Positions 4,848 to 35,338 of a stretch of 64,000 nt of DNA are shown in pieces. Where the stretch lies: the NCBI GenBank assembly GCA_965204575.1, contig OZ241993.1, positions 32,001 through 96,000 on the forward strand, read 5' to 3'. A program made the position numbers and the translations under genes. Positions within the stretch are counted from its first letter, which is position 1. Each line of letters starts with the position of its first letter. This stretch comes from an uncultured candidatus Porisulfidus sp. Lineage in GTDB: Bacteria > Pseudomonadota > Gammaproteobacteria > Poriferisulfidales > Poriferisulfidaceae. Below the pieces are notes generated by a model that did not search any database, was not told the origin of the DNA, and worked only from the letters and a program-made list of their open reading frames with translations.

Positions 4848-6195
4848 GGGTCTTCACGGAATTGTGTGGAACGGAGGTCTCGGATACAGGTCGAGTCCGC
4901 CCAAGTGAAAGTAGATGGCTTCACGGAAGCGCTCGCGGCTGCGGTAGCCGCAGGCTTGGCGTTTGATCCACTGCACTTTCGCGTTGATGGATTCCGACAG
5001 GGCATTGCTGATGCCCAGCACGGCGGCGTTCAGGATCTCTTCCACATGCTTCCAGATCGTCTCCGCCGCCTTGATCACCGGGGCCAGCCGCGAGCGTTTC
5101 GCCGCCTGATGCCAGGCTTCCCAGGCGTAGTAGGCCAGGGTCCGGTCGCGCAACGCCCAGATCTCCGCCGCCCGTTCCTTCAGGATCCAGGCCCGGGCCA
5201 CCTTCAGGTCCTCCTTGCGTAACGCTTCCAGACGCTGGCGCCGGGCCGGGCCCATCCGCTCCTCGGTCATCAGCCAGTCGAAACGGGTGCCCGCCAGGCG
5301 GGCATCGCCTTGCGCCAGCAACCTCTTGTGCTCCGCCCGGCGCACCTGGTCCACCGCCTGGTTGAGCAGGCTCACCACATGGAAGCGGTCGATGCAGATG
5401 TCGGCCTGGGTGTACTTCAGGGTCGCCGCGATGTAGGCCGGCGCCAGATCCATCGCGGCCGTCTCAACCTGCGCGCAGGCGGCGTCGCCCAACTCTCTGA
5501 AAAACGGCTCCACCGCTGCCTGATCCTTGCGGTCTCCCACATACAGCACCACCCCCTTGCGCCCGGACGCCGGCTTCTGATCGACCACGATCGAGACATA
5601 TTCATGCCGCTTCTGGAACGAGGTCTCGTCGATGCCGATCCGCTTCGGTGCCTGCGGCCCGCGTCGCGCCAATCCGCGCCGCACCGCCCGCGAGCGGATG
5701 CCGTCCGCCTGATGCCAGCTCAGCCCCCACTTCTGCGCCACCGCCCGCAGCGGCATCGCCAGCAGGTCCTCGATCACCTCCGTCTCGAAGCGCATCGTGA
5801 AACGACCGTGGGACTCCGCCCACGGCACCGCGATCTGCCGAATCCCGTGCTCCGGGCAGTTCGCCCGCGGCACCTCGGCCCGCAAGGTCGTGCGCCAACC
5901 CATCAAATCCAGGTCCCGCCACTCCCGCGCCTTCGTGTCGTGCCGCTTGCACAAGGTCCCGCATTCCGGACACGGCACCAGGCTCTTCGCCTGATAGGCC
6001 AACTCGATCGTGACGCGCCCCGGGCTGCGATCCTCGCCTCCTTCCCGACAGGACACCGAGACCACCTCCCACGGCGGATGCAGAAACATCAGCATCTCGC
6101 AAAACTTGTTCACTGCTTCCATCAGACCACACTCCAGACTAAAACGCGGAAGCATTATCCCTGACCCTCTATTCCACACAAAACCGTGATGCGCC
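4848..6195 (-). mobile_element. ISL3-family insertion sequence
   Basis: Imperfect terminal inverted repeats GGGTCTTCACGGAATTGTGTGGAA / GGCGCATCACGGTTTTGTGTGGAA; perfect 8-bp target duplication GAACATTT at 4840-4847 and 6196-6203. Confidence 0.95.
4854..6122 (-). CDS. ISL3-family transposase
   Basis: CPECG/CPEHG zinc finger, IGIDETSF, AMDL, DRFHVV, SNALSESINAK..KRQACGYR. Start uncertain (6122 or 6179). Confidence 0.93.
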   Translation of the reverse strand: MEAVNKFCEMLMFLHPPWEVVSVSCREGGEDRSPGRVTIELAYQAKSLVPCPECGTLCKRHDTKAREWRDLDLMGWRTTLRAEVPRANCPEHGIRQIAVPWAESHGRFTMRFETEVIEDLLAMPLRAVAQKWGLSWHQADGIRSRAVRRGLARRGPQAPKRIGIDETSFQKRHEYVSIVVDQKPASGRKGVVLYVGDRKDQAAVEPFFRELGDAACAQVETAAMDLAPAYIAATLKYTQADICIDRFHVVSLLNQAVDQVRRAEHKRLLAQGDARLAGTRFDWLMTEERMGPARRQRLEALRKEDLKVARAWILKERAAEIWALRDRTLAYYAWEAWHQAAKRSRLAPVIKAAETIWKHVEEILNAAVLGISNALSESINAKVQWIKRQACGYRSRERFREAIYFHLGGLDLYPRPPFHTIP

Positions 6196-33080: not shown

Positions 33081-33518
33081 TCAGCCGCCGCAGCCGCCGA
33101 TGGTTACTTTGACTTCCCGCACGCCGGAATACGACTTGCCGCCCGCTTCGACCAGTGCCACGACGTTGGATGTCCTGAGCATCTTCACCCGGGTCGAGAC
33201 ATACGGAACCGAATCGGCGGTCAGATCGTACGTGGACGTCAACGGCAGAGGATTCTGCTCGACCACGATGCTGATCCGGGTCACACCTTCCAGCGTCGTG
33301 GAAACCGAAATCGGGACCACTGCGCCGTTTTCCGCAATGTCGGGGGCGGTAATGGTGATCGCGTCGCTGGGTGCCGGCTCGCTGCTTGCCAACATGTCGA
33401 TCAGTGCGCCGGACTCTTGGGCCTCGAACGCCTCTTTGGGCCAAGCGGCCTGCACGGAACCCGCCACGCATAGCGTCCCCAGGCCTAGACCCGCTGTCAG
33501 AAAAGTTCTTCGATCCAT
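33081..33518 (-). CDS. soxY: SoxY sulfur carrier
   Basis: MDRRTFL Tat signal from ATG 33518; C-terminal VKVTIGGCGG. Confidence 0.97.
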   Translation of the reverse strand: MDRRTFLTAGLGLGTLCVAGSVQAAWPKEAFEAQESGALIDMLASSEPAPSDAITITAPDIAENGAVVPISVSTTLEGVTRISIVVEQNPLPLTSTYDLTADSVPYVSTRVKMLRTSNVVALVEAGGKSYSGVREVKVTIGGCGG

Positions 33519-33537
33519 GGTTTTGTTCTGGGAATTA

Positions 33538-34788
33538 CTAACATAACTTGACAGACTCGCGTCTGCCATATTCTGCAATTATTTGACGCTTCCCAGGCCG
33601 ACTGTGGCGGGAGACCCCGCCGGTGTCGCCACCTCCACGTCCAGCCGCCCCATTCCCGAAGGCCAAAATGTTCAATGCGGCGTTCACATCCGCATCGTCC
33701 GCATGCCCGCAAGCGGTGCACTTGAAGTCTGTTCCATTTCTGTTTCTCTCATCGACGTGCCCGCATGAATGGCAGGTCTGGCTGGTGTACGCCGGAGGCA
33801 CATGGCGCACCTCCATCTTGTAGTCCAGGCAGAGCTCCAGCGTGCCCCATGCGCTGGCCAGTATCTTCCGGTTCAGAGCCGCCTTCGCCTTCACGTTCCT
33901 GCCGGGTTTCTGTTTCGTGCCCCTGGCCGATTTCGTCATGCCCTTGATGTTCAGCTTCTCGACATAGGCCACGTCGTATTCTGACGCAATTCCCTTGCTG
34001 ACGTGGTGCGCCCAGTTCAACCGGGCGAAGCGTTCCGCATGGAATGCCCTCTGCAATCGAACTTTGGTGATCTTCCTGCGATTGCTTCCCTTCGCCTGCC
34101 GCGCCATCTTGCGCTGGTAGCGCCTGCGCTTGGCCTCTTTCCACGCTAAGTCAGGCCCCGGGTGCTTCGTGCCATCCGACAATACCGCCCACCCGTCCGC
34201 GTTCACGTTGCGGTCGATGCCCACTTCCTTGATCGTGTGAGGAAGACTGGCTTCCGTCTGGACTTCATAGGTCAGGTAGGCGTACCAGTTGCCACATTCG
34301 TACTTGATCTGGCCGGACTTGAACTCGCCGTCCAAGTAAGGGTTGTTGCCGACTATCTTCATCCAGCCGACCTTCTGCACATACAGGCTTTCTCCTGCTA
34401 CCTTGGAACAATAGCGGTCTAATGGAAACGAAGGCTCGGCCGTCCACTTGCCGTGGAACTGGGGAAGTTTCCGGTTCAATTTTCCTCCTGTCTTGCAGTC
34501 CTTGAAATATTCACGGTAAGCCGTCTCGATGGGTTGCAGGGAACTCTTCACCACATACGCCGAATAATCCTGCAACCACTTGTAACTGTGCCTTCTCAAA
34601 ACGGTGAATACCTTGCCCAACGAGAAATAAGTCCATTCCGGCTTGATTCCGAATTCGTATTCGTCCCTGAGCTTCCCGACCATGTGGTTCCAGACGAAGC
34701 GGCAGGCCCCGGCGGTGCCGTGCAGTTGCCGGTTCTTTCTTGCAGAACCCGGATGCAGGCGGTAGCGGACGGTGCGATGGACTTTCAT
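33538..34788 (-). CDS. tnpB: TnpB RNA-guided endonuclease
   Basis: N-terminal YRLHP..GACRFVWN, RuvC-I VGIDRN, RuvC-II YVEKLNI, YTSQTCHSCG..CTACG zinc finger, RuvC-III DADVNAALNI. Confidence 0.96.
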   Translation of the reverse strand: MKVHRTVRYRLHPGSARKNRQLHGTAGACRFVWNHMVGKLRDEYEFGIKPEWTYFSLGKVFTVLRRHSYKWLQDYSAYVVKSSLQPIETAYREYFKDCKTGGKLNRKLPQFHGKWTAEPSFPLDRYCSKVAGESLYVQKVGWMKIVGNNPYLDGEFKSGQIKYECGNWYAYLTYEVQTEASLPHTIKEVGIDRNVNADGWAVLSDGTKHPGPDLAWKEAKRRRYQRKMARQAKGSNRRKITKVRLQRAFHAERFARLNWAHHVSKGIASEYDVAYVEKLNIKGMTKSARGTKQKPGRNVKAKAALNRKILASAWGTLELCLDYKMEVRHVPPAYTSQTCHSCGHVDERNRNGTDFKCTACGHADDADVNAALNILAFGNGAAGRGGGDTGGVSRHSRPGKRQIIAEYGRRESVKLC

Positions 34789-34794
34789 GGGAAG

Positions 34795-34823
34795 ATTCTG
34801 ATGCCGGGTTTAGAGTCTGTCAA
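34795..34823 (-). promoter_or_regulatory. Sigma70-like promoter for tnpB with -35 inside the TIR
   Basis: Minus strand TTGACA-N17-CAGAAT-N6-ATG. Confidence 0.65.
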
Positions 34824-34856
34824 GTTATGTTAGTAATCCCCTTTATTCTCTCCCGG

Positions 34857-35204
34857 CTACAGAGTGTGTATGAATTCGACAATCTTGTCGATTTCCTCTT
34901 CCGTCAGAATCTGGTGCTTGCCGAACGGCGGCATCATGGCGTGCGGCCGGAACTGGGTCTGATCCCAGACATTCTGCCGCAAGACTTCCTTGTCGGGGAA
35001 ACGTGCCTGCATCGCGACCAGCGGCACGGAAATGGTGCCCGGAACTTCGCCCCCCGCGATCGAATGGCAGGAGAGGCAGTTCCCCTTCTTACTGTCGAAG
35101 GCGATTTGCCGCCCTTCTTCGATCATTGCGTCGTCCGCCTGCGCCAATGGCGCGAAGCCTACGCATGCGACGACGAGCAGCAGCGACAAGCTAGAGAATT
35201 TCAC
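34857..35204 (-). CDS. soxX: SoxX cytochrome c
   Basis: KKGNCLSCH, MMPPFGKHQILTEEEID; signal peptide from GTG 35204. Confidence 0.95.
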   Translation of the reverse strand: MKFSSLSLLLVVACVGFAPLAQADDAMIEEGRQIAFDSKKGNCLSCHSIAGGEVPGTISVPLVAMQARFPDKEVLRQNVWDQTQFRPHAMMPPFGKHQILTEEEIDKIVEFIHTL

Positions 35205-35338
35205 GTTTAACGCCTTGAAAATTCGCAACGGCGAAACATTATACCTAAAGAAAATAGGGGTTTTTTGACAGAAATTTGACGGGAAACACCTTAAAATATT
35301 GGAGAAACTCATCGCGGCTGGTAGACTGTTTTGCGGAT

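Follow-up and report, generated by a model that had tools for sequence, protein, structure and literature searches.

TnpB is the ancestor of Cas12, and its accepted role, worked out for IS605 and IS607, is to restore the transposon after scarless excision. In the IS1341 group of the IS200/IS605 elements, a solo tnpB encodes a protein with HTH, OrfB and zinc-ribbon domains and is overlapped at its 3' end by a guide RNA; these elements depend on a Y1 transposase and have neither inverted ends nor a target-site duplication. Both are likewise absent from the IS607 family, which uses a serine recombinase. The IS1595 family, which includes members with passenger genes (ISfinder classification), is recognized by GG ends, an 8-bp A/T-rich duplication and a DDE transposase whose N-terminus bears a zinc ribbon.

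An association of TnpB with DDE transposases between inverted ends was already published in 2023. In the sections of their article drawn on here, Altae-Tran et al. (2023; PMC10691335) delimit six DDE-associated TnpB branches, DDE-1 to DDE-6, with inverted terminal repeats, and describe solo TnpBs mobilized in trans whose ends are the same as those of transposase-bearing copies, IS630 being the one family that these sections name. The branches resemble the element studied here in that TnpB lies between terminal inverted repeats (TIRs), its 3' end falls less than 250 bp from the element end, and solo copies share the ends of transposase units. Within the portions used, IS1595 and ISL3 are named neither in the main text of that article nor in a 2026 review (PMC13565253), the sections on the DDE branches describe no flank or target-adjacent motif (TAM) signature, and overlap of these branches with the clade of our element is possible. 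The review, in the part consulted, lists ISL2, IS630 and IS1031 and asks why OMEGA (TnpB plus guide RNA) so seldom occurs together with DDE transposases.

Two further systems come close. Fanzor1/Fanzor2* elements (PMC10711439, PMC3627910; both used in part) are non-autonomous, have inverted repeats and a duplication, and encode a nuclease only, with the repeat predicted to lie in the RNA scaffold; the excerpted account of Yoon et al. (2023; PMC10711439) has repeats and duplications entering Fanzor guide-RNA scaffolds. Cas12n (type V-U4; PDB 9J09, PMC12216341), which according to the sections of that article used here reads a rare purine-rich PAM, has a CRISPR-system context and resembles our TnpB over residues 215-375, with a shared insertion after RuvC-II.

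Here we describe a tnpB element within a window of 64,000 nt, the whole stretch of DNA that was analyzed, from an uncultured candidatus Porisulfidus sp. (contig OZ241993.1). The element has the GG ends and 8-bp A/T-rich duplication of the IS1595 family, and in sister genomes the same ends enclose a DDE transposase of that kind, zinc ribbon included; it differs from that family in having no transposase, its only gene being tnpB with a putative guide RNA. It shares the solo tnpB, the domains and, putatively, the overlapping guide RNA of the IS1341 group and differs from both that group and IS607 in having inverted ends and a duplication, in a genome without Y1 transposase or serine recombinase. 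Unlike Fanzor, as far as the parts of those articles used here describe it, it is prokaryotic, encodes a TnpB of canonical size and, judging from a conserved purine, appears to place its duplication in the guide and not in the scaffold or TAM. Unlike Cas12n, the window TnpB has no CRISPR array. A full-text literature search, covering titles and the beginnings of abstracts, returned no association of TnpB with ISL3 or with IS1595. As far as we have searched, there is no published account of the specific families, of three lineages occurring together without Y1 or serine transposase, or of the flank signature; the preliminary description of this DNA, which had called the TnpB-transposon association possibly undescribed, overstated its novelty in view of the DDE-associated TnpBs with TIRs reported in the cited sections of PMC10691335.

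Results

A tnpB unit inserted between soxX and soxY

The boundaries of the element and of its duplication are as follows, with left end (LE) and right end (RE) defined in tnpB orientation:

33530..34841, minus strand: whole element, read as a non-autonomous IS1595-type element with tnpB; 1312 bp, delimited by the inverted repeat pair and by the empty site in sister genomes
33530..33558, no strand: terminal inverted repeat at RE; includes the tnpB stop codon (33538-33540)
34813..34841, no strand: terminal inverted repeat at LE; includes the -35 box of the predicted tnpB promoter
33522..33529, no strand: target-site duplication copy at RE, TTTGTTCT; equal to the single 8-mer of the L026 empty site
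34842..34849, no strand: target-site duplication copy at LE, TTTATTCT; one transition from the RE copy

The preliminary description had proposed a tnpB-only unit with 29-bp inverted repeats, a 25-bp core and a flanking 8-bp duplication, and each of these holds. The 29-nt arms match at 28 of 29 positions (97% complementary, one mismatch) and begin with the tip GGG, the window contains exactly two instances of the 25-nt core, against none in 100 shuffles, and tnpB is the sole long ORF of the 1312-bp unit. The two 8-mers, read directly, abut both arms and agree at 7/8 positions.

NCBIfam equivalogs identify the neighbors as SoxX (34857-35312, minus strand) and SoxY (33081-33521, minus strand), and SoxZ, SoxA and SoxB come after SoxY on the same strand; the soxX-soxY spacer hit by the insertion is 18 bp long. 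When 41 related genomes were searched at the DNA level, many of those from the same genus proved to have the soxY and soxX flanks directly adjoining. At six of seven sister-genome loci examined, the soxY ATG and the soxX stop are joined via a single 8-mer, as had been predicted for the empty site, and in L026 this 8-mer is exactly TTTGTTCT; the seventh locus, L034, had no match to the flank anchor used. The unit entered the soxX-soxY spacer by a staggered 8-bp cut.

These boundaries bear on the opposing case that the preliminary description had itself raised, namely that an ordinary IS200/IS605 IS1341-type tnpB-only element is nested in an unrelated miniature inverted-repeat element. The RE repeat contains the tnpB stop codon, and the LE repeat, 53 bp from the ATG, holds the -35 box, so that there is no room for separate IS605-type ends.

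Related TnpBs recur between inverted ends

A TnpB protein search of the 1.82-Mb single-contig genome to which the window belongs (G000) returned 20 matches, among them a first family of seven copies and one fragment (71-100% identity), a second of three copies (~42% identity) and a third of six copies (~37% identity). Inverted ends and 8-bp duplications delimit the second and third families as well. Allowing up to 3 mismatches, the 25-mer core was found nowhere else in the genome; a reading that the repeat occurs nowhere else was nevertheless dropped, since the first-family paralogs carry diverged versions of it. These ends show the tip GGGAATTAT, each with its own 8-mer, and in the five further first-family copies with readable 8-mers the duplication is perfect in two and has one mismatch in three.

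Related first-family elements were gathered from 34 species-collection loci and 21 regions from relatives, giving 55 elements with both ends in reach. In 37 of the 55, both ends were found together with a duplication matching at 7/8 positions or better, while the remaining 18, whose ends were not resolved by the scan, were left out of the end counts. The loci belong to uncultured Chromatiales, Candidatus Porisulfidus and, at ~40% identity, Caldilineaceae. Thus other TIR pairs do enclose tnpB at different sites with their own 8-bp duplications, as the preliminary description had anticipated, and the recurrence of this architecture in 37/55 elements argues against a chance nesting of an IS1341 element. 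No transposase was found within the same ends as tnpB in the 34 species-collection loci. Transposase fragments lie ~2 kb from tnpB in L058 and L061 only among these loci.

Searches of this genome gave no match for Y1 transposase (PF01797), for which control genomes were positive, and none for serine recombinase (PF00239); the former result also speaks against nesting. A point on the other side is that distant relatives of this TnpB are classical IS605: a profile scan of metagenome contigs yielded at least 80 loci at 27-46% identity, all distant relatives, and a Y1 transposase is adjacent in 22 of the 80 among the matches listed, as it is in L071. A general scan for inverted ends with a duplication, however, was passed by only 1 of the 68 listed metagenome loci with ends in reach.

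Placement of the TnpB in a phylogeny, by a quick maximum-likelihood tree of 83 rows with a midpoint root, separates the two groups further. One fully supported branch sets off 32 rows as a clade (19 of them Y1-adjacent, the other 13 further metagenome rows), and all TIR-bounded TnpBs, together with the 20 nearest database representatives, fall on the opposite side of it. Counted by context, 31/34 IS605-type or context-unknown metagenome rows (19/20 Y1-adjacent, 12/14 others) lie beyond this branch, apart from the TIR-bounded TnpBs; exceptions are the very long, Y1-adjacent row Y1_L244 and mg_L166, which sits on the TIR-bounded side and failed the TIR/TSD scan (best 14/20 and 7/8). With no room for IS605-type ends and no Y1 transposase in the genome, we regard the nested IS1341 element as extremely improbable.

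The same ends enclose IS1595 transposases

A 20-nt end pattern had matches in 21 of 41 relatives and a single match in a reversed control. Four end pairs are farther apart than in the tnpB unit (in genomes G012, G002, G005 and G022), and these enclose an IS1595 transposase, each with its own 8-bp duplication. The enclosed ORF of 307 aa matches DDE_Tnp_IS1595 (8e-44) and Zn_ribbon_IS1595 and scores 204 bits with NCBIfam transpos_IS1595; it is broken in G022. The ends of three transposase-bearing loci (L036, L037 and L038) have the same tip as the window element. By protein search, the IS1595 transposase is present in 17/40 relatives, and where ends were resolved (9/30 further transposase loci) they match at 24-26 of 26 positions with perfect 8-bp duplications (8/8 in 9/9); in some of the resolved transposase-bearing elements, the ends are of a subtype near the one seen in the window copy. 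The search for TIR pairs around a DDE transposase suggested in the preliminary description was therefore productive, and its proposal of a non-autonomous DDE-type element with IS1595-like hallmarks gains support from the 307-aa transposase of sister genomes between ends of the same tip. From the ends common to the element and to the IS1595 transposase units, we infer mobilization in trans.

The IS1595 genes of this genome comprise one that is frameshifted and one small fragment. As no intact copy was found in the genome, the window copy may now be stranded. The frameshifted gene, at G000:C1:1081612-1083100 (L165), is the sole IS1595 DDE match there and is followed by a DNA methylase-like ORF. 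In the IS1595 elements of L036 and L037, a DNA methylase likewise lies beside the transposase, and in L037 it is fused to an HNH nuclease domain.

In this genome, cargo other than tnpB is also enclosed by ends of this type, in units of 1966 bp and 565 bp and in one that contains an AbiEi-like ORF. That IS1595-type ends here enclose unrelated cargo favors the alternative in which the element is an IS1595 derivative with TnpB as a passive passenger, to which we return below.

The 1966-bp unit (L163, G000:C1:585386-587351) has a perfect 8-bp duplication and ORFs of 354 and 228 aa, neither of which has a Pfam match; a 'restriction-modification' label for this cargo was rejected, its sole basis being an NPPW motif that visual inspection revealed in one ORF. 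Short units with the same end type lie at G000:C1:16578-18770 (L164), where one region has an ORF with an AbiEi antitoxin domain.

ISL3 ends carry another TnpB family

A second type of DDE end is present in the window:

4848-6195, strand not given: complete ISL3 copy, 1348 bp, with a perfect 8-bp duplication

This resident ISL3 is present in the genome as three identical copies, and an 8-bp duplication accompanies each of them. The TIR of the tnpB element differs from the ISL3 ends, as first described; yet the third TnpB family of the genome uses those very ends, its own ends matching those of the resident ISL3 at ~21/24 positions (by reading). A duplication of at least 7/8 was found in 13 of 23 ISL3-type tnpB elements of relatives, the other 10, whose ends the scan did not resolve, being left out of the counts. 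The ISL3-type TnpB family forms a single clade in the quick tree.

TnpB is under purifying selection and overlaps a putative guide RNA

The coding and predicted RNA features of the element are listed here:

33538..34788, minus strand: tnpB, 416 aa, with an intact RuvC triad (D192/E277/D367) and a CxxC..CxxC zinc finger
34795..34823, minus strand: predicted sigma-70-like promoter, TTGACA-17-CAGAAT, with 10/12 consensus matches only; just upstream of the tnpB ATG and partly in the LE repeat
33583..33672, minus strand: putative omega RNA scaffold, its conserved portion, which overlaps the tnpB 3' end; 22 predicted pairs, 6 compensatory, 15 sequences
33530..33582, minus strand: variable terminal hairpin with core stem 33549-33568, its 3' arm in the inverted repeat and followed by the single-stranded repeat tip; also terminator-like
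33510..33529, minus strand: predicted guide, made of the duplication copy and ~12 nt of flank over the soxY start, as TnpB geometry would place it

The window TnpB has the Pfam domains HTH_OrfB_IS605, OrfB_IS605 and Cas12f1-like_TNB. It passes the NCBIfam model guided_TnpB (206.5 bits, cut-off 100) and scores below the cut-offs of IS200_TnpB (155.8, cut-off 425) and IS607_TnpB (81.6, cut-off 350). The three RuvC acidic residues and the zinc finger noted at the outset correspond to D192, E277 and D367 and to C339, C342, C357 and C360, all of which are conserved among solved TnpB/Cas12 chains and in a 30-sequence alignment. Among the five intact paralogs of this genome, dN/dS is 0.09-0.20 in 10/10 pairs, while dS of 0.55-2.3 means that the copies are old relative to each other and reflect no recent burst. 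Judged from its sequence, TnpB is a maintained and probably active RNA-guided nuclease. In library searches, 606 representative clusters fall at E < 1e-30, the best at 50% identity.

Over residues 215-375, the closest solved match is an AI-designed nuclease, followed by Cas12n (PDB 9J09), at E 4e-26. As this similarity lies in the nuclease half and not in the PAM-reading half, the link to purine recognition by Cas12n is only a lead.

Toward the 3' end, comparison at the nucleotide level shows the last ~140 nt to be conserved more strongly than coding alone would require, and these form the consensus fold with the 22 pairs listed above. The region past the scaffold varies by end subtype, yet in 10/10 copies tested a hairpin is predicted there that takes its 3' arm from the inner repeat, with z-scores from -0.3 to -4.2. 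For the terminal 60 nt, the RE fold is more stable than its LE equivalent in 35/37 elements; RE and LE did not differ in how many bases of the repeat pair with upstream sequence (10.0 vs 9.2, p 0.27). A search of positions 33300-35100 against Rfam at a permissive threshold gave no match, and the fold that RNAalifold predicted for the 3' ends of ISL3-type tnpB was weak (1 compensatory pair in 12).

The RE hairpin and the T-rich stretch after it (33568-33549, minus strand) score as an intrinsic terminator as well, and if the hairpin acts as one, less of the flank would be transcribed. This site, together with the complementarity of the segment after the conserved scaffold to the inverted repeat, would suit an element whose RNA holds a fixed internal guide, or a nuclease-independent regulator, with the RE hairpin as terminator and no guide derived from the flank. 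We find this very unlikely, given that the catalytic triad is intact and that the hairpin contains G-U pairs and mismatches, which are like RNA structure and unlike a guide-target match; it would also leave the purine at the LE flank unexplained.

The base beside the left end is strand-asymmetric

Flank bases were counted in tnpB orientation, for the first family after removal of orthologous duplicates (35 elements). In the window element, the position of interest is the following:

34850..34852, minus strand: candidate target-adjacent motif, G at -1 and G at -3 (tnpB orientation), directly 5' of the LE-side duplication

In the first family, the base 5' of the LE duplication is A in 11 elements, G in 24 and C or T in none (purine in 35/35), and two bases farther out on the LE side a purine is found in 29/35. 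The mirror position past the RE duplication is A in 13, C in 7, G in 6 and T in 9, with purines on that side reported as 16/35. The ISL3-type tnpB elements have G 5' of the LE duplication in 13/13 cases, preceded by T (8/13), C (8/13) and C (7/13). Transposase-bearing controls, counted over both flanks, show a purine in 12/24 and G in 4/24 for IS1595 and G in 2/14 for ISL3. Fisher tests on these flank-base counts give p values from 1e-7 to 5e-4. Within the duplication itself, A/T is preferred in a roughly palindromic pattern, which is what a transposase would be expected to leave. Next to the left end, first-family elements have no conserved motif of 4-5 nt.

If the guide starts at the RE tip, the TAM must fall exactly at the asymmetric LE-flank base. 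We therefore propose that the purine or G at the LE flank is the imprint of the TAM of TnpB, a statistical signal that would correspond to TAM recognition. The TAMs known for studied TnpBs are stronger than the candidate motif seen here, which amounts to one to three loosely defined bases.

The same counts weigh on the alternative of an IS1595 derivative with TnpB as passive cargo, in which the LE purine would stem from, for example, an asymmetric target preference of the transposition complex. Besides the unrelated cargo noted above, this alternative draws on the argument, made in the part of the 2026 review used here (PMC13565253), that a DDE excision break is already repairable by recombination from the sister copy, so that a nuclease adds little. 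The flank bias, however, is present on the tnpB-upstream side only, is absent from transposase-bearing elements and is common to elements moved by two unrelated transposase families, and passive cargo would not be expected to show purifying selection on TnpB and a conserved RNA scaffold. On balance, we think passive carriage unlikely.

Discussion

A proposed cycle of transposition and retention

We consider it likely that the unit is an IS1595-type element in which tnpB and a guide RNA replace the transposase, that it is mobilized in trans, and that TnpB cuts empty sites, which recombination then restores. Such an element would be a non-autonomous IS1595 member whose transposase gene was replaced by tnpB with its guide RNA, and would move only when an IS1595 transposase recognizing the element ends is supplied in trans. 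Its RNA scaffold would end in a hairpin partly built from the inverted repeat, and its guide would be read from the duplication copy and the flank beyond the right end. A guide of this origin would match the precise empty site, where the base before the target would be the LE-flank purine, mostly G.

Empty sites can arise as naive alleles or by slippage between two 8-mers. TnpB would cut chromosomes that do not have the element, whether they never had it (naive alleles) or lost it by precise excision between the two 8-mers, and repair templated by an occupied copy would restore it. The element would presumably not cut itself, since at the occupied right end of the window element the corresponding flank position is C.

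More tentatively, with what we would call somewhat less than an even chance, TnpB-guided homing or retention may act on bacterial DDE elements of both IS1595 and ISL3 type and leave a readable imprint in the flank, the last hairpin of the guide RNA being built from the transposase binding site in both families. Because the transposases do not choose the base in question, homing or retention would let only those insertions persist that place a TAM before the duplication; if this is true, its mark is the strand-asymmetric purine or G 5' of the LE duplication (C-C-T-G in the ISL3-type family). The flank signature would then predict where the guide begins and which motif lies next to the target, and small nucleases with a purine- or G-type motif would follow.

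Why TnpB should help a DDE cut-and-paste element is a point raised by the 2026 review, in the portion consulted (PMC13565253). The genome described here and its relatives are a compact natural test case for it, with three TnpB lineages, IS1595 and ISL3 ends, no Y1 or serine transposase and clear empty sites.

The soxX-soxY junction in the occupied allele

The insertion has parted soxY from its likely ribosome-binding site, a GGAG-type stretch that has ended up at the soxX end of the element. In the occupied allele, no GGAG-type stretch was seen before the soxY ATG (positions 33500-33560 and 34835-34880 of the window), and expression of soxYZAB may depend on read-through from the element. Contigs from two RNA runs contained 5% of the sampled words and covered 34842-35000 only. 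In one of them, X2, the 14 letters before 34842 read like the start of soxY, which is below the 31-letter bridging criterion and thus a weak hint; if bridging, the contig would represent an empty-site allele with the A variant of the 8-mer. In another genome of the same genus, the soxY and soxX flanks lie ~940 bp apart (G006:C1:1392155-1393992), and something else may sit at or near the spacer.
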